A stretch of DNA of 64,000 nucleotides from Frankiales bacterium (GCA_025465465.1 JAODND010000091.1:20850-84849), one strand, 5' to 3'. Shown: positions 2,863 through 22,939, numbered from the stretch's first letter. A program made the numbers and translations. Notes: a model not told the origin generated them from the letters alone.

Positions 2863-2875
2863 GGTCCGCTCGCTC

Positions 2876-4953: not shown

Positions 4954-4990
4954 GTGGGTCGCACCTACTCTCTCGGCGTCAGTTGTTGCG

Positions 4991-5856: not shown

Positions 5857-6967
5857 CAGCGAGCAGCGCGCGGCGGTGTGCCGAGGGTGACCCGAACGCG
5901 ACGCGTCCAGCGACCGCGCGCCGCAAGTACAGATGAGCCGGGTGCTCCCAGGTGTAGCCGATGCCCCCCAGCGTCTGGATCATCGTCCCCGCCGACTTGT
6001 AGGCGGCGTCCGAGGCGGCGGCCTTGGCGACATGCGACATGCTCACGGCCTCAGAGCTCGACATGGCCAGCTCCCGAAGGGCGTAGGACGTCACGCACTT
6101 CGCGGCCTCGTTGTCCATGTAGGCGTTGACGAGCTGGTGCTTCACGGCCTGGAAGCTGCCGATCTGGCGACCGAACTGCTCCCGCTGCAGGGCATACCGG
6201 ACGGCGACATCGACGCAGTGCTCGGCGATGCCCACGAGCTCAGCGGCCAGGCACGTGGGCACGAGGACGCGCAGGCGGTCCAGGACCCGTTGGCCGGCGT
6301 CGAAGGCGCCCAGTGGTCGGGCAGGTGCGCCTGCGAAGTCGATCTGCGCCGAGCTACGGGTCAGGTCCATCCCACCGGTCGCCGTGCGGACCTGCCCTTG
6401 GGCATCCCGGTCCACGGCGAAGCACATCGTCCCGTCGTCCGCCGCGGCGAGGACGACGAGCAGGTCCGCCTCGCAGCCGTCCCACACGTCCTCGGCCCGG
6501 CCGTCGAGCTGCCAGCCGTCGGGGCCCCGGGTGGCACGGACCCCCTGCGCGGCCATCAGGCCGTCGGTGCCCAGTGCCAGCCCTGCCAGGCTGGCCGTCA
6601 GCTTCCCCTGCACGATCCGCGGCAGCAGGTCCTGTTGCGCGACCTGGTCGCCCGACGCGAGCAGCGCCTGCCCGGCGAGCACGACGGTCGAGAAGTATGG
6701 ACCGGAGTAGAGGGCGCGCCCGAGCTCGGTGAGGACGACCCCGAGGAACGACAGGGGGGCGCCCGTGCCTCCGAGCTCGACGGGTGTGGCGACCCCCAGC
6801 ACGTCGACCTCGGTCGACAGCCTCGTCCAGAGTTCCGCGTCCGTCGGCGCGCACTGGTCGACGGCGGCGAGCTGACGCGACGCACTGGTGCTGGGCGCAA
6901 GGACCAGACGCAGGGTCTGCTGCAGCTGCCGGTGCTCTTCGTCGTGGTGCCGGCCGGAGCTGCTCAT
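5834..6967 (-). CDS. acyl-CoA dehydrogenase family protein (second subunit of a probable heteromeric pair)
   Basis: Internal ATG at 6967 (MSSSGRHHDEEHRQLQQTL...) forms an ATGA overlap with the upstream ACAD. The C-terminal TLGGIGYTWEHPAHLYLRRA is ACAD C-domain-like. Confidence 0.8.
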   Translation of the reverse strand: MSSSGRHHDEEHRQLQQTLRLVLAPSTSASRQLAAVDQCAPTDAELWTRLSTEVDVLGVATPVELGGTGAPLSFLGVVLTELGRALYSGPYFSTVVLAGQALLASGDQVAQQDLLPRIVQGKLTASLAGLALGTDGLMAAQGVRATRGPDGWQLDGRAEDVWDGCEADLLVVLAAADDGTMCFAVDRDAQGQVRTATGGMDLTRSSAQIDFAGAPARPLGAFDAGQRVLDRLRVLVPTCLAAELVGIAEHCVDVAVRYALQREQFGRQIGSFQAVKHQLVNAYMDNEAAKCVTSYALRELAMSSSEAVSMSHVAKAAASDAAYKSAGTMIQTLGGIGYTWEHPAHLYLRRAVAGRVAFGSPSAHRRALLAGAVRSGG

Positions 6968-8172
6968 CTCGGCTCCTTGGGGAGGCCCAGCAGCCGCTCC
7001 CCGATGATGTTGCGCTGGATCTCGCTCGAGCCGGCGTAGATGGTCGCGGCCCGAGCCCGGAGGAAGTAGTCGGCCCACACGCTGGGCGTGTTGGCGCTGC
7101 CGGCCTCGGCCGCCGGGAAGCTGACGCCCTGCAGCCCGGTGCCGCTCGCTGTGGTGGCTGCGGATCCGAGGATGTCCATCGCGAGCTCCGTCGTCATCTG
7201 CAGCCACTCGCTCCAGAACAGCTTGTGCAGCGAGGACTCAGCGCCGATGTCCCGACCACCCAACCAGCCGTCGACGGCCTGCCGTCCGAGGCAGCGCAGC
7301 TCCTCGACGCGCTGCAGGCTGTACGCGAGCCGCTCCGCCAGCACGGGGTCGGCGAGCTGCCCGCGCTCCGCCGCGAGATCGTGCAGCCGGTCGAAGTCTC
7401 GGCGGAAGCGGGTGCCCAGGGTGGCGACGGCCTCACCTCGCTCATAGCCGAGCAGGTCCATGGCGACCGCCCAACCGCCGTTCACAGGTCCCACGACGGC
7501 ATCGAGCGGGCAGCGGGCGTCGGTGAAGAAGACCTCGTTGAACTCTTCCTCGCCGGTGAGCGTCTTCAGCGGGCGGACCTCGATGCCGGGCTGGTCGAGC
7601 TCGCAGAGCAGGAGGCTGATGCCGCTGTGCTTGCCGGCCGAGGGGTCGGTCCGGCTGAGGACGAAGATGTGCGTCGCGAGGTGCCCGTACGAGGTCCAGA
7701 TCTTCTGGCCGTTGATGGTCCAGTGGTCGTCGCTCGCGACAGCCCGTGTGCGCAGGCCGGCCAGGTCCGAGCCGGCGTCCGGCTCGGAGAACCCCTGGCA
7801 CCAGACGTCGTCGCCGGCCAGGATCCGCGGGAGGTAGTGACGGCACTGCTCCTCCGTCCCCCACCGAAGCAGGGTGGACCCCAGCATCTGGATGCCGAAG
7901 TTGTCGTTCAGTCCGCCCTGGGGAACACCTACCGCGGTGCACTCCTCGGCGACGATGAGCTGCTCCAGCGGACCGAGCCCAGCACCTCCGTACTGCGTCG
8001 GCCAGGTGAGGGCCAACAGCCCGTTGCTGTGCATCAGCGCGCGCCACTCCTCGCGGAACTGGTCCTGCGCCGCAGGCAGCAGGGCACCGATGCCCGTCCA
8101 GTCGGCCGGCAGGTGCTCGCCCAGGAACGCGCGAACGCGGTCCCGGAACACCGATCCGGCAGGTGCGCTCAC
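6964..8172 (-). CDS. acyl-CoA dehydrogenase
   Basis: The GTG at 8172 forms a GTGA overlap with the thiolase stop. ACAD motifs are present (TWPTQYGGAGL, CQGFSEPDAGSD, IYAGSSEIQRNIIGERLLGLP). Confidence 0.85.
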   Translation of the reverse strand: MSAPAGSVFRDRVRAFLGEHLPADWTGIGALLPAAQDQFREEWRALMHSNGLLALTWPTQYGGAGLGPLEQLIVAEECTAVGVPQGGLNDNFGIQMLGSTLLRWGTEEQCRHYLPRILAGDDVWCQGFSEPDAGSDLAGLRTRAVASDDHWTINGQKIWTSYGHLATHIFVLSRTDPSAGKHSGISLLLCELDQPGIEVRPLKTLTGEEEFNEVFFTDARCPLDAVVGPVNGGWAVAMDLLGYERGEAVATLGTRFRRDFDRLHDLAAERGQLADPVLAERLAYSLQRVEELRCLGRQAVDGWLGGRDIGAESSLHKLFWSEWLQMTTELAMDILGSAATTASGTGLQGVSFPAAEAGSANTPSVWADYFLRARAATIYAGSSEIQRNIIGERLLGLPKEPR

Positions 8173-9320
8173 AAGCGTTCGATGATGGTGGCGTTCGCCT
8201 GGCCGCCGCCCTCGCACATCGACTGCAAGCCGTAGCGGGCGCCCCGACGCTCGAGCTCGTGCAGCATCGAGACCATGATCCGGGCGCCACTCGCACCGAT
8301 CGGGTGCCCAAGAGCGATGGCGCCCCCGTTGACGTTGATGCGCTCGCTCTCGGCGCCGATCTCCTGCTGCCACGCCAGCACGACAGAGGCGAACGCCTCG
8401 TTGATCTCGAAGAGGTCGATGTCCCCGACCTCGAGGCCAGCACGGCTGAGGGCAGCGTGCGTTGCGGCGATGGGGGCGGTCAGCATGTAGACCGGGTCGT
8501 CACCGCAGACCGACATCGTGTGCACCCTCGCCCGCGGGGTCAGCCCCAGGTCCTTGACGGCTCGCTCGGAGCAGACCAGCAGGGCGGCAGCCCCGTCACT
8601 GATCTGGCTCGAGAGCGCCGCGGTGATGACGCCGCCCTCGATGAGCGGCGGCAAGGACGCCATGCGTTCGAGGCTCGTGTCGGGCCGGGGGCACTCGTCC
8701 TGGGAGCCGCCGCCGAACGCCACGATCTCGCGCTCGAAGTAGCCCCGGTCCCTGGCAGCTGCGGCGCGCCGGTGGCTCGCCAGGGCGAACTCCTCCATCT
8801 GAGCGCGGGTCAGCCCCCACTTGGAGGCGATCAGCTCCGCGGCGCGGAACTGGTTGATGTCCTGGCCCCCGTAGCGCCGTTGCCACTTCTTGCTGGTGGC
8901 GAACGGGTCCGCATGCAGCAGGTCCGCACCCGCCGACCAGGCGATGTTGAGGGGCACCACGCTCATGAGCTGGACGCCACCAGCGACGACGACGTCCTGC
9001 ACGCCGCTCATCACGGCCTGGGCCGCGAAGTGCACCGCCTGCTGGGACGATCCGCACTGTCGATCGATCGTGACGCCGGGCACGGACTCGGGAAGGCCGG
9101 CAGCCAGCCAGGACAGCCGTGCGATGTCGCCCGCCTGCGGTCCGACGGCGTCCGTCGCGCCGAGGATGACGTCGTCGACGCGTGCGGGGTCGATCCCGGC
9201 CCGACCGATCAGGGCACTCAGCGTGTGCGCCGCGACGTCCACCGGGTGCTCCGCGCTCAGACTGCCGCCGCGCCGTCCGACCTGCGTGCGGACCGCTTCG
9301 ACGATGAATGCCTCGGGCAT
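8169..9320 (-). CDS. acetyl-CoA C-acyltransferase (thiolase II, FadA-like)
   Basis: Internal ATG at 9320 (MPEAFIVEAVRTQVGRRGG...). It has the active-site context TIDRQCGSSQQA and the C-terminal MCEGGGQANA. Confidence 0.9.
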   Translation of the reverse strand: MPEAFIVEAVRTQVGRRGGSLSAEHPVDVAAHTLSALIGRAGIDPARVDDVILGATDAVGPQAGDIARLSWLAAGLPESVPGVTIDRQCGSSQQAVHFAAQAVMSGVQDVVVAGGVQLMSVVPLNIAWSAGADLLHADPFATSKKWQRRYGGQDINQFRAAELIASKWGLTRAQMEEFALASHRRAAAARDRGYFEREIVAFGGGSQDECPRPDTSLERMASLPPLIEGGVITAALSSQISDGAAALLVCSERAVKDLGLTPRARVHTMSVCGDDPVYMLTAPIAATHAALSRAGLEVGDIDLFEINEAFASVVLAWQQEIGAESERINVNGGAIALGHPIGASGARIMVSMLHELERRGARYGLQSMCEGGGQANATIIERL

Positions 9321-9366
9321 CGGGAGTTCCCTCTGGTGTGTCGACACTGCAACACGGACGACGTTA

Positions 9367-9786
9367 TCAACCAAACGATTGGTAGTCAACGTCTCGTGAT
9401 GGCTCGCAGAGGTCCGCGAGCCGGCCCAGGGCCCGCCCGACGGACAGCGCGAGGCCTGCCAGCAGGTCGTCGGGCTCGAGCTCGGTCGTGTAGCTGACGG
9501 AGCACCGGTCGTCGCCCTCGGCCGTCACCTCGACCGTGCCGAGGTGCAGGTCGACCGCGAGTCCTTCCGTGATCCGGTACTGCAGCAGCCGGCGCTCGGG
9601 GTCGTTGACCAGGATCTGTTCAACGATCACCGCGCCGGAGTGCAGCTCGCAGACCCGCTGCGCGCCCTCCATCCGGCAGCTCTGCACGCTCGGAAACCAC
9701 TGGGGCAGCGCGCTCGCATCGCCGACGATCGCCCAGACGGACTCCGCTGCCGCCGCGAGCTGCCTGACCTGGCGATCCACGCTCAC
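9367..9786 (-). CDS. SRPBCC (polyketide cyclase/dehydrase-like) ligand-binding protein
   Basis: The GTG at 9786 is preceded by GGAGG 4 nt upstream. The sequence VDRQVRQLAAAAESVWAIVGDASALPQWFPSV... is typical of the SRPBCC N-terminus. Confidence 0.7.
   Translation of the reverse strand: MSVDRQVRQLAAAAESVWAIVGDASALPQWFPSVQSCRMEGAQRVCELHSGAVIVEQILVNDPERRLLQYRITEGLAVDLHLGTVEVTAEGDDRCSVSYTTELEPDDLLAGLALSVGRALGRLADLCEPSRDVDYQSFG
9370..9383. promoter_or_regulatory. candidate operator, site 1: ACCAAACGATTGGT
   Basis: A 14-bp palindrome 49 nt upstream of the thiolase start (9320), with flanks ca...ta conserved across the other sites. Confidence 0.6.
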
Positions 9787-9803
9787 GATACCTCCACGAG
9801 ACA

Positions 9804-9817
9804 ACCAACCGTTTGGT
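9804..9817. promoter_or_regulatory. candidate operator, site 2: ACCAACCGTTTGGT
   Basis: Lies in the 81-bp divergent gap between the SRPBCC start (9786) and the acyl-CoA ligase start (9868). Confidence 0.6.
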
Positions 9818-9867
9818 ACGGTACGCTGGTCATGCGAAGGTGACAAGCGCGTGACCGGGATGGAGCC

Positions 9868-11400
9868 ATGACGGAGCTCTCACTAGGTGAGGTGTTCGCG
9901 GCGCGCGCCCGTGACCTCGGCGCGTCGCCCGCTCTGATCGCCGACGGCGTCGAACTGAGCTTCGCCGAGCTCGACGACCGCGCCGGACGGCTGGCCGGTG
10001 CTCTGCGCGCCGCGTCGGTGGGGACCGGCAGCAGGGTCGGTTACCTCGGCAGGAACAGCTCCGAGTACGTCGTGTCGCTCGCCGCGTGCGGCAAGCTCGG
10101 CGCCGTCATGGTCCCGCTCAACTGGCGGCTGGCGCACGCAGAGCTGGTGGCGATCCTCGCCGACGCGCAGGCTGTTCTCGTCATCGTCGACGACGAGTTC
10201 ACCGCCGCCGCCGAGACCTTGCGCGCAGATCGCGGCGTCGCGGCCGACGTTCGGCTCGTCGACACCCGCTCGCCAGCCGGCCCCCGCTGGTACGACGGCC
10301 ACGCTCCGCACCTGCCGACGTCGCTGCCGCCCGCCGAGGCGGTTGCCCTCCAGCTGTACACGTCCGGCACCACCGGACGGCCGAAGGGCGTCCTGTCGAG
10401 CCACGTCTCGGTGATCGAGTCACTCAGGCTGCTCAGCCGCGTCGCCGGGATCCAGCGGTCCTCGGTCAGCCTGTGCACGCTGCCGACGTTCCACATCGGA
10501 GGGACGTCCTGGACACTGGCCGGCATCTTCGCCGGCTGTCCGACGGTGCTCCTGCGGGAGACCGACGCCGAGGCCGTGCTCGACGCCGTGGCGGCGCAGC
10601 ACGTCACGACGATGATCGCCGTGCCCGCCGTGATCCAGCTGCTCGTCGAAGCACTGCACGACGGCGACACCCGAGGGAAGACGCTCGAGCGGCTCTACTA
10701 CGGCGGTGGCCCGATGACCGGGCCGGTGCTGGAGCGCGCGCTCGCGGCGTTCGGCTGCGAGTTCGTGCAGGGCTTCGGCATGACCGAGCTGCCCTTGATG
10801 CTCGCGCTGACCCCTGACCTGCACGTGCCCGGCTCGCCGCTGCTGCTCTCGTGCGGACAGCTGGTGCCCGAGACCGAGGCGCGCATCGTCGACCCGGCGA
10901 CCGAGGCCGAGGTGGGCCCCGGCAGCGTGGGCGAGCTGTGGGTCAGGTCGTCGCGCACGATGCTCGGCTACTGGAACCAACCCGACGAGACGGCAAAGGC
11001 TCTCGTGCCCGGCGGCTGGCTGCGCACCGGCGACGCGATGCACGTGGACGAGGACGGCTTCTACTTCCTCCACGACCGCATCAAGGACGTCATCATCTCG
11101 GGCGGCGAGAACATCTACTCAGCCGAGGTCGAGAACGTGCTCATGGCCCATCCGGCGATCCTCGAGTGTGCCGTCATCGGCGTGCCGTCTGCTCGATGGA
11201 CCGAGACGGTCAAGGCCGTCGTGGTGCTGCGGGCAGGGCACTCGGCCGCTGACAGCGAGCTCATCAGCTTCTGCAGGGAGCGACTGGCCGGCTACAAGTG
11301 CCCGACCTCCGTCGAGGTCGTCGCCGCTCTGCCCCGGACCCCTTCGGGCAAGGTGCGGAAGGCCGACCTCCGAAAGCCGTACTGGCCTGCGACCCGCTAG
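9868..11400 (+). CDS. AMP-dependent acyl-CoA synthetase/ligase (FadD-like)
   Basis: 510 aa. It has the AMP-binding motif YTSGTTGRPKGV, plus GELWVRS, TGDA and PSGKVRK. Confidence 0.9.
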   Translation: MTELSLGEVFAARARDLGASPALIADGVELSFAELDDRAGRLAGALRAASVGTGSRVGYLGRNSSEYVVSLAACGKLGAVMVPLNWRLAHAELVAILADAQAVLVIVDDEFTAAAETLRADRGVAADVRLVDTRSPAGPRWYDGHAPHLPTSLPPAEAVALQLYTSGTTGRPKGVLSSHVSVIESLRLLSRVAGIQRSSVSLCTLPTFHIGGTSWTLAGIFAGCPTVLLRETDAEAVLDAVAAQHVTTMIAVPAVIQLLVEALHDGDTRGKTLERLYYGGGPMTGPVLERALAAFGCEFVQGFGMTELPLMLALTPDLHVPGSPLLLSCGQLVPETEARIVDPATEAEVGPGSVGELWVRSSRTMLGYWNQPDETAKALVPGGWLRTGDAMHVDEDGFYFLHDRIKDVIISGGENIYSAEVENVLMAHPAILECAVIGVPSARWTETVKAVVVLRAGHSAADSELISFCRERLAGYKCPTSVEVVAALPRTPSGKVRKADLRKPYWPATR

Positions 11401-12044
11401 CGCGGACGGGCCGCCGCGGCAGGCTCCGCGACACCGAGGACGGCTGCCAGCGCGAGCTGTGCGTAGCTCTTCGCGACCTCGGCCGGGGAGTCCTTCCCAT
11501 CCGGCCGGTACCAGTCGGCCACCCAGTTGGTCCCGCCGATGACGAACGACGACACGAACCGCTGGTTGACGGTGCCCTGGAGCCCCTTGAACTTGTACGC
11601 CGCGGCGATCAGGTCTCGCAGGTAGCGGTCGTACTGACGGCGGCGCTCCACCAGCTTCGCGCGCCGCTCACCTGTGAGATAGCGCCAGTCCCTGAAGTAC
11701 AGCGACTGCAGCTCCAGGTTCTGCAGGGTGTTGGCCACACCGCGCTCGAGGTAGGCCCGCAGCCGCTCGACGGGGTCGACGTCGAGCGCCTCGAGCTCTC
11801 GCATCATCAGCTCGGCGTCGCCATGCGCGTTCTCGAAGATCTGGAAGAGCAGGTCTTCCTTGGAGTCGATGTAGTGGTAGACGCTGCCCTTCAGCACGCC
11901 CACGGCATCCGCCACGTCCTGGATGCTGGCTGCCGCATAGCCCTTCTCCGCGAAGATGGCCAGAGCAGCCTGCAGGATCTCCGCTTCGCGGTTGCGGCGA
12001 CCGGCCGGCGCAGCACCGGACTTCCGCGCGTTCGACTTCATCAC
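11397..12044 (-). CDS. TetR/AcrR family transcriptional regulator
   Basis: 215 aa. The N-terminal HTH reads ILQAALAIFAEKGYAAASIQDVADAVGVLKGSVYHYIDSKEDLL. It converges on the ligase gene with a 4-nt overlap. Confidence 0.9.
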   Translation of the reverse strand: MMKSNARKSGAAPAGRRNREAEILQAALAIFAEKGYAAASIQDVADAVGVLKGSVYHYIDSKEDLLFQIFENAHGDAELMMRELEALDVDPVERLRAYLERGVANTLQNLELQSLYFRDWRYLTGERRAKLVERRRQYDRYLRDLIAAAYKFKGLQGTVNQRFVSSFVIGGTNWVADWYRPDGKDSPAEVAKSYAQLALAAVLGVAEPAAAARPR

Positions 12045-12095
12045 GCCCCCAGACGACCGTTCGTTCGGTACGCACCCTAGCCCGCGGAGCCTCGA

Positions 12096-12935
12096 TCAGA
12101 GCCCAGCTGCGTCGGCCATGACGGCAAGAGCTTCCAGGGACTTGTCGCGAGGCAGCGTCTCCAGCAGGAACACGCACACGTCCACGCCCATGGCTTCGTA
12201 GGACGCGATCTGCTCGGGGTCCGCCGCCATGCCGAACAGGTAGACGGGGACGCGCCCCCGCCCGAGCTCCTCCGACCTCCGGCGCAGTTCCGAGATCCGC
12301 TCCGGCAGGTCCGGCATCGGCGGCCAGCCTGGGTTGGGTGCCCACGCATCTGCGTACTCGAGGACCCGGTCGACGACCGTCGGCCCCATGCCACCGAGGA
12401 CGATCGGCGGGTGGGGAAGCTGCGCGGGTCTGGGCCGCACCGTGGTGGGCGCGATGGTCACGAGCTCCCCGTCGAAGCTGGCCACCTCCTCGGACCACAG
12501 CTGCGTGATGGCGCGCACCCGCTCACCGAGAAGCTTCGTGCGCGTGCGCGGATCCGTGCCGTGCTGCCGCATCTCGTCGACGTTCCAGCCCGCGCTCACG
12601 CCGAACACGAACCGCCCCCCGCTCAGCTGATCGAGGCTGGCGACCGACTTGGCGGTGTGGATCGGGTCACGCTGGACGAGCAGGCACATGCCGGTGCCCA
12701 CTCGCAGTGTCCGGGTTGCCGCGGCGGCAACCGTCAGGGCGACGAACGGGTCGTAGGTGTGGAAGTACTCGGGCGGAAGGTCTCCCCCACCGGGGTAGGG
12801 CGTCTCCCGGCTGGCAGGGATGTTGGAGTGCTCCGTCAGGAACAAGTAGTCGAACCCGTGTCCCTCCAGGCCCACGGCCAGGTCATCCGGCCGAATGCTG
12901 TCGTCGGTCGCGAACGTGACGATCCCGAACTCCAC
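12096..12935 (-). CDS. LLM-class (luciferase-like) F420-dependent oxidoreductase
   Basis: 279 aa. MEFGIVTFATDDSIRPDDLA...FDYLFLTEHSNIP...SGGRFVFGVSAGWN resembles the F420-dependent LLM subfamily. The GTG start is preceded by AAGGAG. Confidence 0.85.
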   Translation of the reverse strand: MEFGIVTFATDDSIRPDDLAVGLEGHGFDYLFLTEHSNIPASRETPYPGGGDLPPEYFHTYDPFVALTVAAAATRTLRVGTGMCLLVQRDPIHTAKSVASLDQLSGGRFVFGVSAGWNVDEMRQHGTDPRTRTKLLGERVRAITQLWSEEVASFDGELVTIAPTTVRPRPAQLPHPPIVLGGMGPTVVDRVLEYADAWAPNPGWPPMPDLPERISELRRRSEELGRGRVPVYLFGMAADPEQIASYEAMGVDVCVFLLETLPRDKSLEALAVMADAAGL

Positions 12936-12946
12936 TGCTGGCTCCT

Positions 12947-13153
12947 TCAGACGAACGCGATCGAGATGGCGGACTCAGGGCATCCGGAGGCGACGCGGCG
13001 CAGCTCTTCGAAACGGCTCTGCGGCTGCACCGCACCGAGGACCTCACCGAGACCGTCGTCGTTGTCGCCGGAGGCGAACACGTCCGGGCTGCCGAGCACG
13101 CACATCTGGTGGCCGCGGCACAGCCCCGGATCGATGGAGACCCTGAGCGTCAT
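12947..13153 (-). CDS. small ferredoxin (P450 redox partner type)
   Basis: Internal ATG at 13153 forms an ATGA overlap with the P450 stop. The 68-aa product is MTLRVSIDPGLCRGHQMCVLGSPDVF...ASGCPESAISI, a single-cluster ferredoxin pattern. Confidence 0.75.
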   Translation of the reverse strand: MTLRVSIDPGLCRGHQMCVLGSPDVFASGDNDDGLGEVLGAVQPQSRFEELRRVASGCPESAISIAFV

Positions 13154-14412
13154 GCAGCGCCCCGGGTCGACAGCCTGCGCCCAGGGGTGAAGGTGGCGGG
13201 CATCGTGACCCAGCCGTTGACGATGCCGAGGTTGGGGTACTGCCGGCTGCGCTGCTCGTCGATGGAGAAGTCCGGCATCCTGGTCAGGACCTCGCTGAGG
13301 ATGAGCTCCACCTGAGTGCGAGCCAGGTGCGACCCGAGGCACCGATGCAGCCCCAGCCCCCAGGACACGTGCTTGTTGGGCATGCGGTCCATGACGCACT
13401 CGTCCGCCCGCGGGAACGTCGCCTCATCGCGGTTCGCAGACGCGTAGGACAGCAGCACGCGCTCACCCGGCGACAGCACCTGACCGCCCAGCACCGCCGG
13501 CTTGCGCACCGTGCGAGCGAGTGCTTGGACGGGCGTGAACATGCGCATGAACTCCTCGGTGGCCACCGGCAGCCTCGACAGGTCGGAGACCAGGAACTCC
13601 CGCGCCTCCGGGTGCCGGCTGAGGTAGGCGAACGCGTTCGCCAGCAGCGTCGTGGTCGTGTCCACGCCGCCGGAGAACAGCGTGTAGACGACGCTCATCG
13701 CAGCCTCGTCGTCGATCGGCGCCCCGCCGATCTCCGCGCTCGCGACATGGCTGATCAGGTCGGCACCCGGATCACGCCGACGCCGGGCGATCAACTCGCG
13801 GATGCGCTCGACGATGCCTTGCAGGCCGGTGACAGCCTCGGCGTACTCCGGCGAGCCAGGTGGGTATCCCAGCGCGTTGTGGAACGGTTCGGAGTACGTC
13901 GCCCACTCCGCCACGTCGATACCGAGCAGCTGCAGGACCGAGCTCGCGGGGATGGCCGCAGCGATGTCGACGGCGAGGTCGCACTCACCCGCCTCGATGA
14001 CTTGGTCCACGTAGTGGGTGGTGAGCTCCGCGATCATCGGCCGGTAGTCCCAGACCGCTGTCGGCGAGAACCGCGGAGCGAGGAGCCGTCGGAAGTCCTC
14101 CCACTGCGGGTTGTCGACCTCGGTCGGGATCATCGGCACCAGCCCACGCTCGGCCGGTACGAAGATCCCGCCGCTGTAGTTGCCGGCGTCGTCGGTGGCG
14201 GCTCCGCTGGTGTACGTCACCGCGTCGCGGAGCACCTCCGACACCTCGGCATAGGACGTCACGACCCAGTAGCCGCCGTTGCTCTCCGACCAGGCCACGG
14301 GGGTGGAGTTGCGCAGCTCGCGATAGACCTCGAGCGGCCCACGAGCGGTGTGCTCGGGCGAGTTGTGGTCGAACGCGACGGGGCAGCGTGCTGTCGGCAG
14401 TTCCTGTGGCAT
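13150..14412 (-). CDS. cytochrome P450
   Basis: Internal ATG at 14412 (MPQELPTARCPVAFDH...). It has the EEFMR (ExxR) motif and the heme-thiolate loop HVSWGLGLHRCLGSHLAR. Confidence 0.9.
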   Translation of the reverse strand: MPQELPTARCPVAFDHNSPEHTARGPLEVYRELRNSTPVAWSESNGGYWVVTSYAEVSEVLRDAVTYTSGAATDDAGNYSGGIFVPAERGLVPMIPTEVDNPQWEDFRRLLAPRFSPTAVWDYRPMIAELTTHYVDQVIEAGECDLAVDIAAAIPASSVLQLLGIDVAEWATYSEPFHNALGYPPGSPEYAEAVTGLQGIVERIRELIARRRRDPGADLISHVASAEIGGAPIDDEAAMSVVYTLFSGGVDTTTTLLANAFAYLSRHPEAREFLVSDLSRLPVATEEFMRMFTPVQALARTVRKPAVLGGQVLSPGERVLLSYASANRDEATFPRADECVMDRMPNKHVSWGLGLHRCLGSHLARTQVELILSEVLTRMPDFSIDEQRSRQYPNLGIVNGWVTMPATFTPGRRLSTRGAA

Positions 14413-14444
14413 CACCACGTGTGGAGCCTCTCTGGTCGGCTCGT

Positions 14445-14798
14445 TCAGCGAGCGATGATCCCGTGCAGCTGGAGGTTCTTGCGACGCCGCTCCTGGGCGT
14501 CGGGGCTGATGAGCTCCGGGGTCCATTCCAGCCCGTGGTCCATGGAGACCGTGACGGACGCGACCCCGGGCAGCTCCGCGAGCCGCCGCTTGATCTCGAC
14601 GTCGAAGTAGCCGACGTTGTGGCACAGCGGCGCGGTCAGCCGCAGCGTGACATGGAGCCGCCCGTCGTCATCGAGGTCGACGGCCTTGACGAGGCCCATC
14701 TCCTCGATGCTCATCGGTGTGCCGGACGCGACGCTGCACGGGTCGCCTATCCCGTGCAGGATCTCGCGGACCTGGGCGTCGACTCCGGACTCAGCCAA
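14445..14798 (-). CDS. DUF59 / MIP18-family metal-sulfur cluster assembly-like protein
   Basis: 117 aa. VREILHGIGDPCSVASGTPMSIEEMGLVKAV...LTAPLCHNVGYF is the DUF59 (PaaD/SufT-like) pattern. It overlaps the upstream amidohydrolase by 8 nt. Confidence 0.75.
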   Translation of the reverse strand: MAESGVDAQVREILHGIGDPCSVASGTPMSIEEMGLVKAVDLDDDGRLHVTLRLTAPLCHNVGYFDVEIKRRLAELPGVASVTVSMDHGLEWTPELISPDAQERRRKNLQLHGIIAR

Positions 14799-15912
14799 CG
14801 CCGGCCGCCTCGGGCAGGGGCGTCATGACCGCGTCCTTGAGGGGCGTCGTCGAGTACGGGATCGGCAGAGGGCCGTGGTGCGTGAACTCGTCATCCTTGA
14901 TGCCTGCGGCGAGCTTGTCGACGTCGAAGCCGTGCAGGCGCGCGATGTTGCCGCTGAGGATGGCCTTCTTGTGCTCCCGGGTGAGCTGCGGGATGGGGAA
15001 GAAGATGCCCTTGCGAGCCATCTGCTCCTCGGTGAACTGGAAGTCCATGAAGGCCTCCAGCCCGGGCCGCGGGTGCGAGTTCATCGCCCCGGTCGCCCAG
15101 TAGATGCGCTCCAGGGCGGCCTCGCCAGCGACGCTCAACAGGCCCGCGAGCTGCTCGCCGAAGACGCTGGGCCGCATGGTCAGGACGAGGTTCATCGTCT
15201 CGAAGTTGACCCAGATGTTCGGGAAGCGGGCGAGCAGCCAGGCAGTCTCCTCGACGAAGGACAGGCCACCATGGACGATCGAGAAGTTGAGGTCCGGGAA
15301 GGCCGCTGCGGCACCCTCGACATCGACCGGGTTGAACGCATTGCCGCCCGACGGCGATGGTCCCATGGGCAGCGACTTGTGGATGGCGACGGACCGCAAG
15401 CCGAGCTCGCGGGCCTTCTCGTAGAGCGGGAACCCGATCTTCGGGTCGTCCATCCGCCACGGGGTGACCGTGCCCTCGTTGTAGCTGACCGGGTAGAGCT
15501 TGAGACCGACAGGGTTGTTCATCATCTCGACCTGCCGCTCCATCTCGCCCAGGGGGTCGGGGCGCAGCGGGTCGATGGACACGTAGGAGCCGATGAAGCG
15601 GTTCGGCCAGCGCTTGGTCGCCTCGAGCGCCTTGGCCACGCTGGAGTAGCCGTCCTTGAAGAAGTAGATGGGCACCGGGTGGAAGATCGCGACGTCGGTG
15701 TTCGACTCGCGGAACATGATGTCCGCCGTCTCCTCGACGCTCCAGTCGCGCAGCGTCTTCTCCCCCTCGAGGTCGTAGCCGGCCGGCTGCCCCGCAAAGA
15801 AGCTCGCCTGGAGCTGGCGCAGTGACTCCGCGTACTCCGGGGAGGCCATGTTGCCCTCGGTCATGTCGAACGCATGGGCCACGCCATCGATGACAAACAG
15901 TCCGTCCTGCAT
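14791..15912 (-). CDS. amidohydrolase-2 family protein (metal-dependent decarboxylase/lactonase superfamily)
   Basis: 373 aa. The N-terminal FVIDGVAHAF and the later IHKSLPMG, VHGG and WATGAM patterns fit a TIM-barrel amidohydrolase_2 protein. Confidence 0.8.
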   Translation of the reverse strand: MQDGLFVIDGVAHAFDMTEGNMASPEYAESLRQLQASFFAGQPAGYDLEGEKTLRDWSVEETADIMFRESNTDVAIFHPVPIYFFKDGYSSVAKALEATKRWPNRFIGSYVSIDPLRPDPLGEMERQVEMMNNPVGLKLYPVSYNEGTVTPWRMDDPKIGFPLYEKARELGLRSVAIHKSLPMGPSPSGGNAFNPVDVEGAAAAFPDLNFSIVHGGLSFVEETAWLLARFPNIWVNFETMNLVLTMRPSVFGEQLAGLLSVAGEAALERIYWATGAMNSHPRPGLEAFMDFQFTEEQMARKGIFFPIPQLTREHKKAILSGNIARLHGFDVDKLAAGIKDDEFTHHGPLPIPYSTTPLKDAVMTPLPEAAGVG

Positions 15913-15945
15913 GAGCGGGTCCCTTTCGAGGGTGACGAGTTACCA

Positions 15946-15959
15946 ACCAACCGTTTGGC
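15946..15959. promoter_or_regulatory. candidate operator, site 3: ACCAACCGTTTGGC
   Basis: Lies 33 nt upstream of the amidohydrolase start (15912), in the 113-bp gap after the SDR gene. Confidence 0.55.
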
Positions 15960-16025
15960 TGGACGCTATCCGTGCAACACACCTGGGTCAAGCCGTTCAC
16001 GCGTCGGACTCGCCGTCGCCTCGCG

Positions 16026-16862
16026 CTAGGCGATCAAGGCACCCGCGTCCACCGGAAGGGCGACGCCGGTGATGTAGCGGGCCTCGTCCGAGGCGAGGAA
16101 CAGCAGCGCGTTGCTGACGTCCCGCGACTCGACCCAGGGGATCGGCAGCGCGTTCATGGCCTGCGACGCCGGGGCGAAGTCCTCGCGCGTCGGATGTTCC
16201 AGGTCCGGGCGGAACAGCGCATAGGTGGACTCGTTCATGATCATCGGCGTGTCGACCTGCGTGGGGTGCAGGCTGTTCACGCGAATGTTCTGGGGCGCGA
16301 GCTCGAGGGCGAGGGTCCGCATGAGCCCGACCAGGCCGTGCTTGGCCGACACGTAGTGCGCCACGTTGGCATAGGCCTGCATCCCAGCGGCCGAGCTGGT
16401 GAGGACGATTGATCCTCCCTGGCCACCCGCCAGCAGGTGCGGGATCGCCGCTTTGCAGGTGCGCCAGACACCGCTGAGATTGATGTCGAGCATGGTGGTC
16501 CAGACGTCCTCGGGGATGTCCTGGGCGGGGTACGGTGCCGAGCTGATGCCCGCGTTCGCCGCCACGATGTCGAGACGGCCGAGGTGGGCCATGCCCTGCT
16601 CGACGGCCCCGTCGAGCGCCCGCTGGTCGCGCACATCGGCCTCGATGGCGACGATGCGGCGGCCCAGGTTCTTCACCTCATCGACCGTGCGCGCAAGATC
16701 GTCTGAGGTCGGCCCCGGATAGGGCACCCCCTTGATGTCCTTGCAGATGTCGACGGCGATCACGTCGGCGCCTTCCTCGGCAAGCCGAAGGGCGTGCGCC
16801 CGACCCTGACCTCGGGCCGCCCCGGTGATGAGAGCCACCTTGCCCTCGACTCGACCTGTCAT
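16026..16862 (-). CDS. mycofactocin-coupled / carveol-dehydrogenase-type SDR oxidoreductase
   Basis: 278 aa. The N-terminus GKVALITGAARGQGRAHALRLAEEGADVIAVDIC plus the long insertion before the second strand are hallmarks of this SDR subfamily. Confidence 0.8.
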   Translation of the reverse strand: MTGRVEGKVALITGAARGQGRAHALRLAEEGADVIAVDICKDIKGVPYPGPTSDDLARTVDEVKNLGRRIVAIEADVRDQRALDGAVEQGMAHLGRLDIVAANAGISSAPYPAQDIPEDVWTTMLDINLSGVWRTCKAAIPHLLAGGQGGSIVLTSSAAGMQAYANVAHYVSAKHGLVGLMRTLALELAPQNIRVNSLHPTQVDTPMIMNESTYALFRPDLEHPTREDFAPASQAMNALPIPWVESRDVSNALLFLASDEARYITGVALPVDAGALIA

Positions 16863-16889
16863 GTGCCGTCCACCGTTCTGTCCGGAGTG

Positions 16890-17963
16890 CTACTGGCTGA
16901 TGGGATGCGCCGCGGCGCCGACCGAGTTGTCGGGGCCCGCGCCAGGGGGCTCGGGATTCACCTCGGCGGGTTCGGCAGGTGTCACGCGAGCGGCACCGAC
17001 GCCACGTCGGCGAAGCGAACCGGCGTACAGCCCGAACCCGACACCGAGGATGAGGGCGGCGCCGTCGAAGAACTGGTTGACCCACGGAGAGGCGCCCCAC
17101 AGCGTGAGCCCGTTGACGCTGACGGCCAGGAAGAAGACGGCGGCGACGGTTCCCCAGACGTTGTAGCGGCCCGGTTGGATGGTCGTCGCACCCAGGAAGG
17201 CAGCGGCGATGGCCGGCAGCGTGTAGTTGGGTCCGAGCTGCGGCGTACCGGATCCGACGTTCGCGACCAGCAGGATGCCGGCACCGCCCGCGATGCCCCC
17301 AGCGATGACGTGCGCGCTGAAGACCCGACGCGGGACCCGGATGCCGACGAGCAGCGCCGCCCGCGGGTTCGAGCCCAGGGCGTACAGGTCCTTGCCCGCA
17401 GGTGTCCGCTCCAGCCCGTACCAGACCGCGATGGCACAGAGGACGAAGAAGTAGAAGAGCTTCGGCAGGCCGATCCACTTTCCCGCGCCGAGCCCGATCA
17501 GCTTGGGGCTGATGCCAGTGGTGATCGAGAGTCCCTTGGAATAGGCAAGGACCAGCGCGCTGATGACGCTCGCGATGCCGAGGGTGGCGATGATGGAGGG
17601 GATGCCGGCCTTGGCGACCAGGAGTCCGTTGACCACGCCGACTGCCAGTCCCAGCGCAATGGCCGCGACGACGGCTGCCCCGAGCGACCACCCGGACTTC
17701 GACATCAACCCGGCGCACACCACTCCGCTGAAGCCCGCGGTGGGACCGATCGACAGGTCGATCTGACCCGCGACCAGGGGTATCACCGTCGCGATCGCGA
17801 GGATGCCCAGTAGCGACTGGTCGGTGAGGATGTTGGTGATGTTGGCCGACGACCCGAACTGCGGCGTGGCGGAGTTGAACTTGAAGAAGATGCCGATCGC
17901 GACGAGCAGGCCGACGAGCCCGTAGCGCTCGACGAGCTCGATGACCTTCGACGTGTACCTCAT
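16890..17963 (-). CDS. ABC transporter permease, CUT2 (ribose/xylose-type) family
   Basis: 357 aa, polytopic, with RbsC-like sequence. Its start overlaps the ATPase stop. Confidence 0.9.
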   Translation of the reverse strand: MRYTSKVIELVERYGLVGLLVAIGIFFKFNSATPQFGSSANITNILTDQSLLGILAIATVIPLVAGQIDLSIGPTAGFSGVVCAGLMSKSGWSLGAAVVAAIALGLAVGVVNGLLVAKAGIPSIIATLGIASVISALVLAYSKGLSITTGISPKLIGLGAGKWIGLPKLFYFFVLCAIAVWYGLERTPAGKDLYALGSNPRAALLVGIRVPRRVFSAHVIAGGIAGGAGILLVANVGSGTPQLGPNYTLPAIAAAFLGATTIQPGRYNVWGTVAAVFFLAVSVNGLTLWGASPWVNQFFDGAALILGVGFGLYAGSLRRRGVGAARVTPAEPAEVNPEPPGAGPDNSVGAAAHPISQ

Positions 17964-19501
17964 CGCGTCAACCTCTGGTTCTCGAGAACGATTTCAAGCA
18001 GCTCATGTGCGGTGGTCTGGTCATGCACTTCCTGGGTCACCTGACCACGACACAGGACGAGGATCCGGTCACTGAGGCGGGTGAGCTCCTCGAACTCAGA
18101 GCTCGCCAGCACCACGGCCATGCCTTTCCTGCTCGCTTCCGCGATCAGCCCGAGGATGGCCTCGCGAGCACCCACGTCGATGCCTTGCGTCGGTTCGTCG
18201 AGGAGCAGGATCGCCGGGTCGGTGCGCAGCCAACGACCCAGTACGACCTTTTGCTGGTTCCCGCCCGACAGGGTCTCGATGCCGGCTTGCGCGCCGGGCG
18301 CCTTGACCGAGTAGCGCGTGAGGTCGCGCGTGACCTCGGCGACCATCAGCCTGCGCCGGAACCAGCCCCGACGGAAGTAGCGTCGGCTCTGCCCGACGGT
18401 CATGTTGGTCGCGACGCTGTGCTCCGGGAAGACGCCACCTGTGCCGCGATCCTCGGGCACGAACGCGACGCCGTGTGACTTCATGCGGGCGGACGTCGGA
18501 AAGCGAACGGCCTCGCCGCGCACGAGCAGGTCACCGCTGTTGATCCTCCGCACCCCGAAGATGGCCTCGAGCAGCTCGGTGCGGCCACTGCCCAGCAGGC
18601 CGGCGATCCCGACGATCTCACCGGGGCGGAGCGTGAAGCTGACGTCCCGCACCGGTCCAGCGCTCACGTGCCGGAGCTCCAGCACAGGGGCCTCGGACCG
18701 GGCGATCCGCCCGGCACCCGTCGTCACGTTGATCTTGCCGCCGAGGATCAGCTCGACCAGCTTGGGCTCGGTGAGATCCGCGGCGTCCAAGGTGCCCGCG
18801 TTCCTGCCGTCACGCAGGCACGTGACCCGATCAGCTGCCTGCCGCACCTCGTCCAGCCGATGACTCACCAGAACCACGCTGTGCCCCGCGTCGGCAAGCC
18901 TCCGCAAGGTCCGGAGCAGCTCGCCCGCCTCCTCGGCGGGCAGGGCTGCAGTGGGCTCGTCGAGGACGAGGATCGCTCGGTGCTGCTCGTCGACGTCCTG
19001 CAGCGCCCGGCCGATCGCGAGCAGCGCACGCTGCGGCATGGAGAGCGTCGACGCCAGGGCTTGCGGGTCCACGTCCAGGTCGAGCCGTCGCAAGACCTCG
19101 CGCACTCGCTCGCGGCTCGCCCGTGCCCTGATGCTGCCCGTAGGCCCCGTGACGAACTGACCACCGAGCCCGAGGTTGTCGGCCACGCTCAGGATCGGGA
19201 ACACCCCCAGGTCCTGGTGCACGAACCGGAAGCCCGCCCGTGCGGCCTCCTCCGGGCGATGTCCTGTGAGGTCCGTCGTCACGTCATCGATGTCGAGCGA
19301 GCCCTCGTCGGCGGACAGCACCCCCGCGAGGATCTTGATGAGCGTCGACTTGCCCGATCCGTTGCCACCGACCAGGGCATGGACCTCGCCCCAGGTCAGC
19401 TGGAGGTCGACGTTGTCGAGTGCCTGGGTGTTGCCGAAGCGCTTCGACAGTCCGCGCACCGCAACTGCGGTGCGCGGACCGTCGATCGTGGCGGGCTTCA
19501 T
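17960..19501 (-). CDS. ABC transporter ATP-binding protein, fused double ATPase (RbsA-like)
   Basis: Internal ATG at 19501 (MKPATIDGPRTAVAVRGLSKRFG...) forms a TGATG overlap with the substrate-binding protein (SBP) stop. It has Walker A GGNGSGKST and the signatures LSMPQR and LSGGNQQKV. Confidence 0.9.
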   Translation of the reverse strand: MKPATIDGPRTAVAVRGLSKRFGNTQALDNVDLQLTWGEVHALVGGNGSGKSTLIKILAGVLSADEGSLDIDDVTTDLTGHRPEEAARAGFRFVHQDLGVFPILSVADNLGLGGQFVTGPTGSIRARASRERVREVLRRLDLDVDPQALASTLSMPQRALLAIGRALQDVDEQHRAILVLDEPTAALPAEEAGELLRTLRRLADAGHSVVLVSHRLDEVRQAADRVTCLRDGRNAGTLDAADLTEPKLVELILGGKINVTTGAGRIARSEAPVLELRHVSAGPVRDVSFTLRPGEIVGIAGLLGSGRTELLEAIFGVRRINSGDLLVRGEAVRFPTSARMKSHGVAFVPEDRGTGGVFPEHSVATNMTVGQSRRYFRRGWFRRRLMVAEVTRDLTRYSVKAPGAQAGIETLSGGNQQKVVLGRWLRTDPAILLLDEPTQGIDVGAREAILGLIAEASRKGMAVVLASSEFEELTRLSDRILVLCRGQVTQEVHDQTTAHELLEIVLENQRLTR

Positions 19502-20670
19502 CAGCCCGTGACACCCCAGGACTTGGCGTACGCGGCGGGGACGTCGAAGGAGGGCTTGAAGTCCTGGCCCTTCGGCGGGAGGTCGGTCGTCGCGTCGACG
19601 ATCTGGAAGCCCAGGCCCTCGTCCCTGGCCGGCGTCTTGTTGAAGTAGCTGTTGAGGGTGTCCACGGCGCCATAGGCCCACCACTCGAGCGGCCACGAGT
19701 TGACGGCATCCAGGCCCTGGCCGGACCGCACCGTGTCGTAGTCGGCGGCGACGCCGAAGCCACCGATCATCTTCACCTTGCCGACCAGGCCGCCCTGGAC
19801 AACAGCCTGGGTGATGCCCAGGGTCGGGTTGGTGGCTCCGTGTGCAGCAACAGCGTCAGGGTTCTGGAGGAAGGAGGCCTTGGCCTTCGAGGTGAGCGTC
19901 GGGCCGAAGTCGGCCGCGAGCCAGTCGACCTTCACGCGCTTGCAGTCGGGGCAGACGGAACTGACCTGTGCCGCGTAGCCCTGCTCGAGCAGCTTGAGGG
20001 TCGTGTACTCATTGTTGGCGAAGTCGATGATGGTGCCCTTGCAGTTCGCCTGCTTGATGTCCCACGCCGCAGACGTCGCGCCGTAGGCGCGGACCGCATC
20101 GGCGAAGTCCTTGTAGCGGGACCCGAAGCTGATGTGGGTCGCGAAGACCGGTGCTTGCCCGGACGTCGAGGGGTCGTCGTTGAGGTCCCAGCCCTGCACG
20201 GAGATGGTCGGGATCCCGGCAGCGGTCGCCTGCTGGACAGCAGCCTTGACGAGCGGCGCGTCCAGGCCGACGCCGACGATGCCGTCGACCTTCGACGCCA
20301 CGGCCTCCTTCACCAGCACCGGGAACTGCGCGGGATCGAGCTTGGCGTCGTAGAGCTTGGACTGCCAGCCGATCGCCGCAGCGGCCTTCTGGACCCCAGC
20401 GGCACCGACGGCGACGGTGGGTGACGCCATCCCGACCGCGACGATGGCAATCTTCTTGCCCTTCGCCGCGGGGTTCGCCTCAGTGGGCGGCGTCGTGTAG
20501 GTCTTGGCCGCCGCTGTCTGCGTCACGGCTGCGATGCAGTCGGTGGACGAGGACGCGGACGTGCCCGTGCTCGGCGAGGCTGTGGCCCCCGTCCCCGACG
20601 ACGATGAGCAGCCGGCGAGGGCCGTGGCAATGGCAGTGACAGACATGGCGAGCTGCGCGCTTCTTCGCAC
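19501..20670 (-). CDS. ABC transporter substrate-binding lipoprotein (PBP type I, sugar-binding-like)
   Basis: The GTG at 20670 is preceded by AAGGGG. The signal peptide VRRSAQLAMSVTAIATALAGCSSS includes a lipobox. The ORF-track 5' extension to 20799 was dropped. Confidence 0.85.
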   Translation of the reverse strand: MRRSAQLAMSVTAIATALAGCSSSSGTGATASPSTGTSASSSTDCIAAVTQTAAAKTYTTPPTEANPAAKGKKIAIVAVGMASPTVAVGAAGVQKAAAAIGWQSKLYDAKLDPAQFPVLVKEAVASKVDGIVGVGLDAPLVKAAVQQATAAGIPTISVQGWDLNDDPSTSGQAPVFATHISFGSRYKDFADAVRAYGATSAAWDIKQANCKGTIIDFANNEYTTLKLLEQGYAAQVSSVCPDCKRVKVDWLAADFGPTLTSKAKASFLQNPDAVAAHGATNPTLGITQAVVQGGLVGKVKMIGGFGVAADYDTVRSGQGLDAVNSWPLEWWAYGAVDTLNSYFNKTPARDEGLGFQIVDATTDLPPKGQDFKPSFDVPAAYAKSWGVTG

Positions 20671-20724
20671 GTCGACCCCTTCGCGAATGAGCTGTGACCC
20701 ACGCCACAGGCAGTACCACTGTCT

Positions 20725-20742
20725 ACCAATCGGTCGTTTGGT
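20725..20742. promoter_or_regulatory. candidate operator, site 4 (variant spacing): ACCAATCGGTCGTTTGGT
   Basis: Lies 54 nt upstream of the SBP start (20670). It has the same ACCAA/TTGGT arms and ct..tg flanks, but 8 nt rather than 4 nt between the arms. Confidence 0.4.
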
Positions 20743-20868
20743 TGTCAACAGCTCCGCAACGTCCGCGAGCCCTACCTCGACCTCGTCGAGGTAGGGCAAC
20801 GGGCGTGCTTGTGCTCGTCGTCCGAGCTCCCGTGCGCGAAGGCTCTGGTTGCGGCGACGAGCCGGCTA

Positions 20869-22742: not shown

Positions 22743-22939
22743 GACTGCTCCTCCAGGGATGCGTCGGTGGGTTGAGTGGCGTTGCGGTGGTGCCGGCCCC
22801 GACCGGCAGAGGCGGCGGGTGGCGAGGTCCGCCACAGGAACACGGCCACACCGGCCAGCAGGCTGATGACGGCCAGCATCATGAGTGACATCACGAGCCA
22901 GGCTCCGAACCCGAAAGAGGCGGAGTGGTAGCCCATCAT
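22739..22939 (-). CDS. small single-TM membrane protein (hypothetical)
   Basis: Last 66 codons of ORF 22739..23317: MMGYHSASFGFGAWLVMSLMMLAVISLLAGVAVFLWRTS.... There is an ATGA overlap with the ADH start, but the Shine-Dalgarno sequence is weak. Confidence 0.35.
   Translation of the reverse strand: MMGYHSASFGFGAWLVMSLMMLAVISLLAGVAVFLWRTSPPAASAGRGRHHRNATQPTDASLEEQS

Follow-up and report, generated by a model that had tools for sequence, protein, structure and literature searches.

We analysed a 64,000-nucleotide stretch of DNA from a Frankiales bacterium (hereafter the window) and found on its minus strand a four-gene operon (20670..16026) in which an ATP-binding cassette (ABC) importer of CUT2 architecture is co-transcribed with a nicotinoprotein short-chain dehydrogenase/reductase (SDR) of the family TIGR03971. 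One operator was common to this transporter operon, a cytochrome P450/TetR operon, an igr-like beta-oxidation operon and an acyl-CoA synthetase operon, and the wiring was conserved in related genomes. Since the operon recurs in a small number of soil actinobacteria and its repressor site is shared with the P450 and beta-oxidation operons, the importer probably serves a non-sugar alcohol instead of a sugar. We put at roughly 0.5 the probability that the transporter operon belongs, as the module for uptake and first oxidation, to a catabolic island under TetR control that breaks down an oxygenated compound other than a sugar; our best guess at the substrate is a ring-bearing secondary alcohol or diol of the terpenoid or alicyclic type. 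The transporter itself has a standard architecture, set in an unusual and conserved wiring.

The window is high-GC actinobacterial DNA (GC 0.65-0.73), and the reading frames of all four operon open reading frames (ORFs) had a third-position GC (GC3) of 0.79-0.88; their positions agree with an earlier note on this DNA that had given the same end points. The gene order is substrate-binding protein (SBP), fused ATPase, permease, SDR. The SBP is a lipoprotein of 389 aa (19501..20670; GTG start at 20670, lipobox LAGC, Pfam PF13407). Its gene is translationally coupled to that of a 513-aa CUT2-type ATPase with two nucleotide-binding domains (NBDs) fused in one chain (17960..19501; two ABC_tran stretches, PF00005), the stop and start sharing 1 nt (TGATG). 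The ATPase gene in turn overlaps by 4 nt (ATGA) the gene of an RbsC/AraH-like BPD_transp_2 permease of 357 aa (16890..17963; PF02653 at 120.8 bits over residues 41-306), which is present in one copy only, and an intergenic gap of 27 nt separates the permease from the SDR gene; these junctions were read directly from the sequence. Two Walker A motifs (GGNGSGKST and GLLGSGRTE) and the signature LSGGNQQKV were seen in the ATPase translation. The NCBIfam models nearest to the ATPase were AraG, YtfR, XylG and RbsA at 344-390 bits, none reaching its equivalog cutoff, and the alignment to the AraG, XylG and RbsA models was full-length. Similarly, the permease was nearest to GguB, AraH and RbsC, all below their cutoffs. 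The importer has the features that define CUT2 (TC 3.A.1.2), namely a two-NBD single-chain ATPase, a BPD_transp_2 permease and a cluster-B type I SBP, and the CUT2 architecture claimed earlier was borne out by the Pfam and NCBIfam matches and by the Foldseek matches of the SBP. An Rfam search found no RNA element near the operon. Directly upstream of the transporter promoter lies a minus-strand pair (20869-22835) of genes that overlap by 4 nt, one encoding a Zn-dependent alcohol dehydrogenase that resembles threonine dehydrogenase or IolM at scores below the cutoffs, the other an SPFH/band-7 protein; the same pair was present on the nearest related contig, L007 (see below).

The gene neighbourhood of the SBP was surveyed in one genome per species (58 loci, given here by L numbers) plus metagenomic loci; genes were called, the neighbours were clustered, and four groups of loci were distinguished. 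Group A, with an SBP identity of at least 58%, comprised nine independent loci (the window, a Frankiales metagenome-assembled genome (MAG), Frankia sp. AiPs1, Subtercola and metagenome contigs), the record nearest to the window's locus being the Frankiales MAG contig L007. A TIGR03971 SDR (310-414 bits) adjoined the transporter in eight of the nine, placed either directly behind the permease gene or ahead of the SBP gene in divergent orientation (the window, L065, L003/L008, L066, L004, L006/L021, the relative of L007, and L067); L068 was the exception. An amidohydrolase-DUF59 pair was found in four loci, a TIGR03619-type luciferase-like monooxygenase (LLM) in four, a P450 in three and a TetR in three. 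Moreover, L065 carried an exact copy of the window's ten-gene order, and L003 followed that order after the transporter, minus the P450. The remaining neighbours in group A included flavin reductases, LLMs, an electron-transfer flavoprotein, acyl-CoA dehydrogenases (ACADs), enoyl-CoA hydratases, an acyl-CoA thioesterase and modules of an APH-family kinase with an ACAD. No sugar kinase, isomerase or aldolase was present in any of the nine group A loci. The earlier note had proposed a non-canonical ligand; the group A context argues, as that note did, against an ordinary sugar, whereas the polyol, terpenoid and sugar-like-acid classes it listed are guesses.

The operator ties the transporter to its neighbours. 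The palindrome ACCAAnCGnTTGGT, with at most one mismatch, occurred at 9370, 9804 and 15946 and nowhere else in the 64 kb; three sites were observed against 0.05 expected, a number reached in 0 of 100 shuffles. The canonical copy ACCAACCGTTTGGT (9804..9817) separates the cyclase2-thiolase-ACAD operon from the divergently oriented acyl-CoA synthetase gene; ACCAAACGATTGGT (9370..9383), also canonical, is located where the cyclase2 gene ends, some 50 nt upstream of the thiolase start. The third copy, GCCAAACGGTTGGT (15959..15946), is part of an internal promoter element on the minus strand (15946..15991), where it follows TTGACC (15991..15986), 17 nt and TAGCGT (15968..15963), and it precedes the amidohydrolase-DUF59-P450-ferredoxin-LLM-TetR operon; its orthologues were found in L003 (13404) and L065 (8070). 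The transporter promoter (20720..20748, minus strand) consists of a -35 box TTGACA (20748..20743), a 17-nt spacer ACCAAACGACCGATTGG and a -10 box TAGACA (20725..20720), and the right operator half CGATTGGT abuts the -10 box. Both promoters were identified by eye and by conservation across loci. A consensus promoter and terminator scan of 15700-21000 called nothing, and the transporter promoter was missed because its -10 box is without the final T.

The site in the SBP promoter (20742..20725, ACCAAACGACCGATTGGT) contains perfect half-sites 4 bp further apart than in the canonical operator (0.09 expected); read at canonical spacing, it has two mismatches, both in the left half. In seven of eight orthologous loci (L003, L006, L007 and L065-L068) the operator was located inside the promoter spacer. 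The layout TTGAC[AT]-17/18 nt-TA[GA]A.A with the operator in the spacer was seen in L003, L006, L007, L065, L066 and L067; in L068 the operator lay directly 3' of the -35 box, and in L004 a perfect copy stood about 60 nt downstream of a candidate -35 box, outside the spacer. The normally spaced orthologous operators were perfect in L066 and carried one mismatch in L065, L003, L006, L067 and L068. Reading the window's site purely as a 4-bp expanded palindrome was therefore rejected, in that the orthologous promoters fit canonical spacing with 0-1 mismatch. The earlier note had placed the transporter operon behind a variant of the operator found at the P450 and beta-oxidation operons. The link is real, given the conserved sites, but the site is better described as a true, positionally conserved operator of canonical spacing, with a degenerate left half and a right half fused to the -10 box. 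A third half-site was seen at some operators, where CCAAACGGTTGG is followed 4 bp on by TTGG (CCAAACGGTTGGTTGG), at 15942-15959 in the window and at 13405-13422 and 17040-17057 in L003. At the window's SBP promoter the arrangement is mirrored, the additional ACCAA standing 4 bp left of the site. These third half-sites might indicate two overlapping TetR dimers.

The SDR (278 aa, 16026..16862, minus strand) is of the nicotinoprotein type and belongs to the mycofactocin-coupled subfamily. It scored 409.1 bits on TIGR03971 (cutoff 300) and 343.8 bits on NF009467 (cutoff 269), and matched the Mycobacterium avium carveol dehydrogenase 5EJ2 over its full length (E = 7.5e-114). Mycofactocin-coupled SDRs are defined by an insertion loop at the NAD site (PMC5264612) and retain the catalytic Ser-Tyr-Lys together with Asp38 (PMC3023750). 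When the SDR was aligned with a classical SDR paralogue of the window (23706-24494), the paralogue had a 12-residue gap facing residues 32-51 (ADVIAVDICKDIKGVPYPGP) at the NAD site, and a second insertion was located in the C-terminal loop; the NAD-site insertion was also present in the L003 and L066 orthologues. Asp38, Ser157, Tyr170 and Lys174 were all retained in the alignment and the translation. The TIGR03971 score, the insertion and the catalytic residues thus agreed with the earlier assignment of the gene 27 nt downstream to the carveol-dehydrogenase/mycofactocin type. TIGR03971 was reported only from mycofactocin (mft)-positive genomes, Frankia alni and EAN1pec among them, and mycofactocin-coupled SDRs were numerous in actinobacteria, where a genome may hold as many as 26 paralogues (Haft 2011, PMC3023750). 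Judged by its family and by these surveys (Haft 2011, 2017; PMC3023750, PMC5264612), the SDR would depend on mycofactocin and would hold a non-exchangeable NAD. As had been stated earlier, the window itself showed no mycofactocin biosynthesis genes among the Pfam matches of its GC3-supported ORFs, a screen whose ORF length lies above the roughly 30 residues of mftA.

Two subtypes of TIGR03971 SDR recurred at transporters of the close clade, one of 278 aa (about 410 bits) and one of 270 aa (about 312 bits), sometimes both in one operon (L066 4795-6559; L006 8977-9789 and 13757-14590; L067 1132-1944; L004 8485-9297). This suggests two successive or stereo-specific oxidations.

The SBP has an n-region MRRSAQLAMSVTAIATALAGC (MRR...LAGC) that holds the lipobox, and the M-R-[RK] start was kept among homologues. 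Its Peripla_BP_4 (PF13407) match was 43.7 bits (cutoff 35.1), its best sequence match in the PDB had an E-value of 2.8e-5, and its identity to any solved SBP was at most 22%. An AlphaFold2 (AF2) model built from 29 sequences had a pLDDT of 88.5. The best Foldseek matches of this model were 5DKV, 2IOY, RbsB, GanP and 4RU1, all sugar or polyol SBPs, with target-normalised TM-scores of 0.80-0.87, identities of 14-22% and E-values of 1e-14 to 1e-18. By its model, the SBP falls among the type I periplasmic binding proteins of cluster B (RbsB-like), where it belongs to a divergent long subfamily, and the ribose-binding-protein fold, as predicted, is not in doubt. Public sources annotate the SBP as 'ribose transport'. 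A word-indexed search returned 28 homologues, all annotated 'ribose transport' or unnamed; a family as tiny as this was ruled out by an exhaustive HMMER search with the SBP, which revealed a wider family of long RbsB-like SBPs, with 751 clusters at E <= 1e-30. Exact-sequence look-ups with the SBP and SDR of the window, and with the Subtercola boreus SBP, gave no match. Only two representatives exceeded 500 bits, so the window's own SBP clade is rare.

The binding pocket was compared through a hidden Markov model (HMM) alignment, without model coordinates, to the Thermoanaerobacter ribose-binding protein (RBP) 2IOY at 17% identity. Relative to 2IOY, the SBP had S83 for N13, T85/V86 for F15/F16, Thr for N190, F305 for D215 and an invariant W330 for Q235; K226 was aligned with R141, and F164 was retained. 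The compared positions are ribose contacts of RBP. The alignment suggests a pocket less polar and more aromatic than that of RBP, which is a lead only, since the identity of the alignment is low.

The fold bears directly on a rival explanation, in which the operon encodes an ordinary CUT2 importer for a polyol, cyclitol or monosaccharide plus the first dehydrogenase, lying beside a lipid/terpenoid-type island but functionally separate from it. Such a system would resemble the actinobacterial threitol, erythritol, xylitol or inositol systems. The top structural matches of the RbsB-like SBP, all sugar/polyol binders, include the inositol-binding 4RU1 and the Mycobacterium smegmatis polyol SBPs, and the ATPase and permease are nearest to AraG, XylG, RbsA and AraH. 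Asp162 of the SBP is invariant, with several Asn and Ser residues conserved, and the two recurring SDR subtypes would suit a stepwise oxidation of polyols. Yet enzymes typical of sugar or polyol routes (kinase, isomerase, aldolase, dehydratase) were absent from all nine close loci, and the SBP passed no NCBIfam equivalog model, those for sugars included. Moreover, the operator is common to the P450 and beta-oxidation operons and conserved across orthologous loci, and the amidohydrolase-DUF59-LLM-TetR genes travel with the transporter. We consider an ordinary polyol or sugar importer unlikely.

The APH-type modules at some loci would suit another ligand, namely a lactone or a hydroxy acid, such as a 4- or 5-hydroxy acid that stems from lactones or terpenoids. 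Such a ligand would be acidic, in contrast to a neutral ring alcohol, and would be oxidised and processed as a CoA thioester. Modules of an APH-family kinase, an ACAD and an SDR adjoined the transporter in L004 (1710-3577), L066 (6608-8898) and L068 (4549-9210), the last with an added small ORF and a PaaK-like CoA ligase. They resemble the LvaABCDE/ACAD10-11 route of 4-hydroxyacyl-CoA, a likeness by Pfam composition only. An acyl-CoA thioesterase follows the transporter in L067, the basic K226 is aligned with Arg141 of RBP, and group B relatives lie inside acyl-CoA and carboxylase clusters. Against this ligand, the window has no APH-ACAD module, Peripla_BP_4 SBPs rarely bind carboxylates, and the conserved partner is an alcohol-oxidising SDR that would act ahead of any CoA ligase step. 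It is quite improbable that the ligand is of this kind.

In group B (SBP identity 44-51%; L001 1-15536, L005 222-13681 and L009) the acyl-CoA/carboxylase cluster was conserved. It contained genes for an acyl-CoA synthetase, a 202-aa protein without assignment, a short Rv1127c-like pyruvate phosphate dikinase (PpdK; NF004531, 701 bits), a biotin carboxyl carrier protein, a split biotin carboxylase, a PycB-like carboxyltransferase, DUF35, a thiolase, cyclase2 and an enoyl-CoA hydratase, followed by the transporter, BioY and an ACAD. The contexts of groups C and D (SBP identity 26-39%) were uninformative on the ligand, group C adjoining coaE, uvrB and rpsA and group D accompanying a cyclic-nucleotide (cNMP)-binding protein. 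In 12 loci with SBPs 33-39% identical (L011, L013, L020, L022-L025, L028, L045, L052, L055 and L062), the permease gene was followed by a gene whose product, about 750 aa long, is repetitive and Ala/Gly-rich, begins with a signal and ends in a membrane anchor; at least two of the housekeeping genes coaE, uvrB and rpsA stood beside it in five of the 12 (L011, L013, L045, L055 and L062).

The SBP class also includes the LsrB-type binders of autoinducer 2 (AI-2), which were among the weak matches of the SBP (6DSP, E = 4e-4), and mycofactocin bears a glucan chain (PMC7491314). Both fit a transporter for sensing or uptake of an AI-2-like signal or a cofactor-related glycoside that is not a carbon source. 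This is very improbable, in that the neighbourhood lacks mft genes as well as genes for an Lsr kinase or for Lsr processing, and the operon is embedded among, and co-regulated with, catabolic oxygenase and beta-oxidation genes.

The island to which we favour assigning the transporter continues with the P450/TetR operon (11397..15912, minus strand), which encodes in order an Amidohydro_2 protein (15912..14791), DUF59 (14798..14445), the P450 (about 14439..13150), a small ferredoxin (13146..12947), an F420-type LLM of TIGR03619 (12935..12096; 257 bits) and a TetR with a TetR_C_24 domain (12044..11397). The best PDB matches of the P450 were P450cin (2e-57) and a reconstructed CYP125 (1e-55), then CYP142 and P450cam, so that its nearest matches are hydroxylases of cyclic monoterpenoids (cineole, camphor) and of steroid side chains. 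The TetR was nearest to 3DCF and 3VPR, with KstR2 (4W97, E = 1.3e-17) less close than those two, and had no NCBIfam match; it appears nearest to the acyl-CoA-sensing KstR2/PfmR group. The amidohydrolase-family protein had no match among PDB sequences, and its confident AF2 model (pLDDT 91.4) resembled ACMSD-type decarboxylases, the LigJ hydratase and an uncharacterised TIM barrel only loosely, at TM-scores of about 0.5-0.58. The LLM (12096-12935), next to which the TetR gene (11397-12044) follows, belongs to a family named after Rv2161c of Mycobacterium tuberculosis, where Rv2160A presumably adjoins Rv2161c. In Mycobacterium bovis BCG the TetR-like repressor gene BCG_2177c (Rv2160A) was linked to growth in cholesterol, by the title of a reference cited in PMC9301340.

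The acyl-CoA part of the regulon (318..11400, both strands; Pfam and NCBIfam assignments) carries on the minus strand genes for an SRPBCC cyclase2, a thiolase, two ACADs, MaoC-type hydratases, an Ltp-like thiolase, a free DUF35, a CoA-transferase III and a further, Hsd4A-like SDR (PRK07791-like by NCBIfam), and on the plus strand the acyl-CoA synthetase (about 9850..11400). Within it, 318-9879 (minus strand) forms an igr-like side-chain beta-oxidation operon in which DUF35 is free-standing and not fused as in ChsH2. A 330-aa ORF of this operon (4054-5046) had no Pfam or NCBIfam match.

Based on these assignments we propose the following mechanism. The TetR encoded last in the second operon would bind ACCAAnCGnTTGGT, and at the transporter promoter it would block RNA polymerase; it would exclude the polymerase because the site fills the spacer between the -35 and -10 boxes and abuts the -10 box. 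As with KstR2-type regulators, a CoA-thioester intermediate would make the TetR leave all four promoters. The hydroxylated non-sugar substrate would be captured outside the cell by the SBP and imported by the ABC system. The SDR would oxidise the hydroxyl to a ketone with its tightly bound NAD, and mycofactocin from biosynthesis genes elsewhere in the genome would re-oxidise that cofactor. The P450-ferredoxin pair, the LLM and the amidohydrolase-family enzyme might functionalise or open the ring, after which the acyl-CoA synthetase would activate the product and the igr-like enzymes would shorten it by beta-oxidation.

Several points weigh against this reading. All structural neighbours of the SBP are sugar or polyol binders, and the pocket comparison leans on the 17%-identity alignment made without model coordinates. 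The window's SBP-promoter site is two mismatches off canonical, and repression from it is a prediction. The amidohydrolase-family protein could be a decarboxylase, a hydratase or a lactonase. The more distant SBP relatives (26-51% identity) lie in quite different contexts, and therefore context is uninformative for the wider family. Hydrophobic alcohols usually do not require an SBP-dependent importer, polyol catabolism is normally also laid out as a CUT2 transporter with an SDR, and we know of no CUT2 system that imports a terpenoid. A search of the literature on mycofactocin with ABC transporters and on non-sugar CUT2 ligands found nothing relevant.

A further step, which we take only tentatively and with more doubt than belief, is that a CUT2 SBP clade has been recruited to import a ring alcohol that is not a carbohydrate, or else a hydroxy acid or lactone akin to it, and passes this straight to mycofactocin-dependent nicotinoprotein dehydrogenases. 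If true, it would link SBP-dependent uptake to mycofactocin metabolism for the first time and would provide a natural route to the physiological substrates of TIGR03971 enzymes, the physiological substrate being known for almost none of the mycofactocin-coupled SDRs. The SBP would be an experimental handle on the substrate of such SDRs, because it is soluble, can be screened for ligands and is as a rule encoded with one. It would also follow that the label 'ribose transport' on CUT2 systems can mislead for a whole clade, which matters for metabolic models of soil Frankiales. If the ligand is an ordinary polyol, the finding shrinks to a new polyol operon with an unusual regulator.

Elsewhere in the window, 25404-31483 holds a cluster of the gamma-glutamyl-amine type with an amino-acid permease, a Peptidase_C26 gamma-glutamyl hydrolase, a GntR/FCD regulator, a glutamine-synthetase-like enzyme and an aldehyde dehydrogenase. 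The kdpABC and kdpDE genes (32311-40321) are followed by an imuA'-like gene, imuB and dnaE2 (40575-46022). A lower-GC patch (0.65) at 46076-49608 contains an enoyl-CoA hydratase-like gene, a tautomerase-like ORF and a second TetR, then an epoxide hydrolase, and a single tRNA-Met gene is located at 55220-55294.

Compared with known CUT2 importers, the window's system is like Escherichia coli RbsABC and AraFGH and the M. smegmatis polyol transporters in its fused ATPase, BPD_transp_2 permease, cluster-B SBP and translational coupling. Its SBP is about 60-80 residues longer than RbsB, its operon adjoins oxygenase and acyl-CoA enzyme genes instead of sugar kinases and isomerases, and its regulator is a KstR2-like TetR and not of the LacI, RbsR or DeoR type. 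The SDR is like other TIGR03971 SDRs (LimC of Rhodococcus erythropolis, and 5EJ2 and 3UVE of M. avium) in family score, insertion and catalytic residues. It differs from them in being placed within an ABC importer operon, a setting absent from the mycofactocin papers PMC3023750 and PMC5264612, and in having no mft genes near it.

The regulon recalls that of KstR2 in combining a TetR resembling KstR2 with a 14-bp palindromic operator. The KstR2 motif AnCAAGnnCTTGnT is a 14-bp palindrome of the form A.CAA....TTG.T (PMC3068626). The window's ACCAAnCGnTTGGT agrees with it at the outer positions, whereas the central four bases are nCGn here and GnnC in KstR2, so that the window's operator is not a KstR2 palindrome. 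We therefore termed the system KstR2-like and not KstR2. With the igr operon of mycobacterial cholesterol catabolism the window shares the ACAD pair, the MaoC hydratases, the Ltp-type thiolase and DUF35, in the igr order; the gene set as a whole resembles that side-chain operon. Like the mycobacterial cholesterol system, it has a CYP125/CYP142-like P450, yet one whose similarity to P450cin slightly exceeds that to CYP125; the importer is of the CUT2 type here and Mce4 there, and no ring-degradation (Kst, Hsa) genes are present in the window.

To our knowledge, no SBP-dependent importer has been described for monoterpenoid catabolic pathways. The enzyme complement of the window is nonetheless like that of the P450cin and P450cam systems and of the limonene/carveol pathway of R. 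erythropolis DCL14, following the pathway logic of monoterpenoid catabolic clusters with a P450-ferredoxin pair, an alcohol dehydrogenase, a luciferase-like enzyme, a CoA ligase and beta-oxidation. It differs from these clusters in that its luciferase-like enzyme is of the F420-type family TIGR03619.

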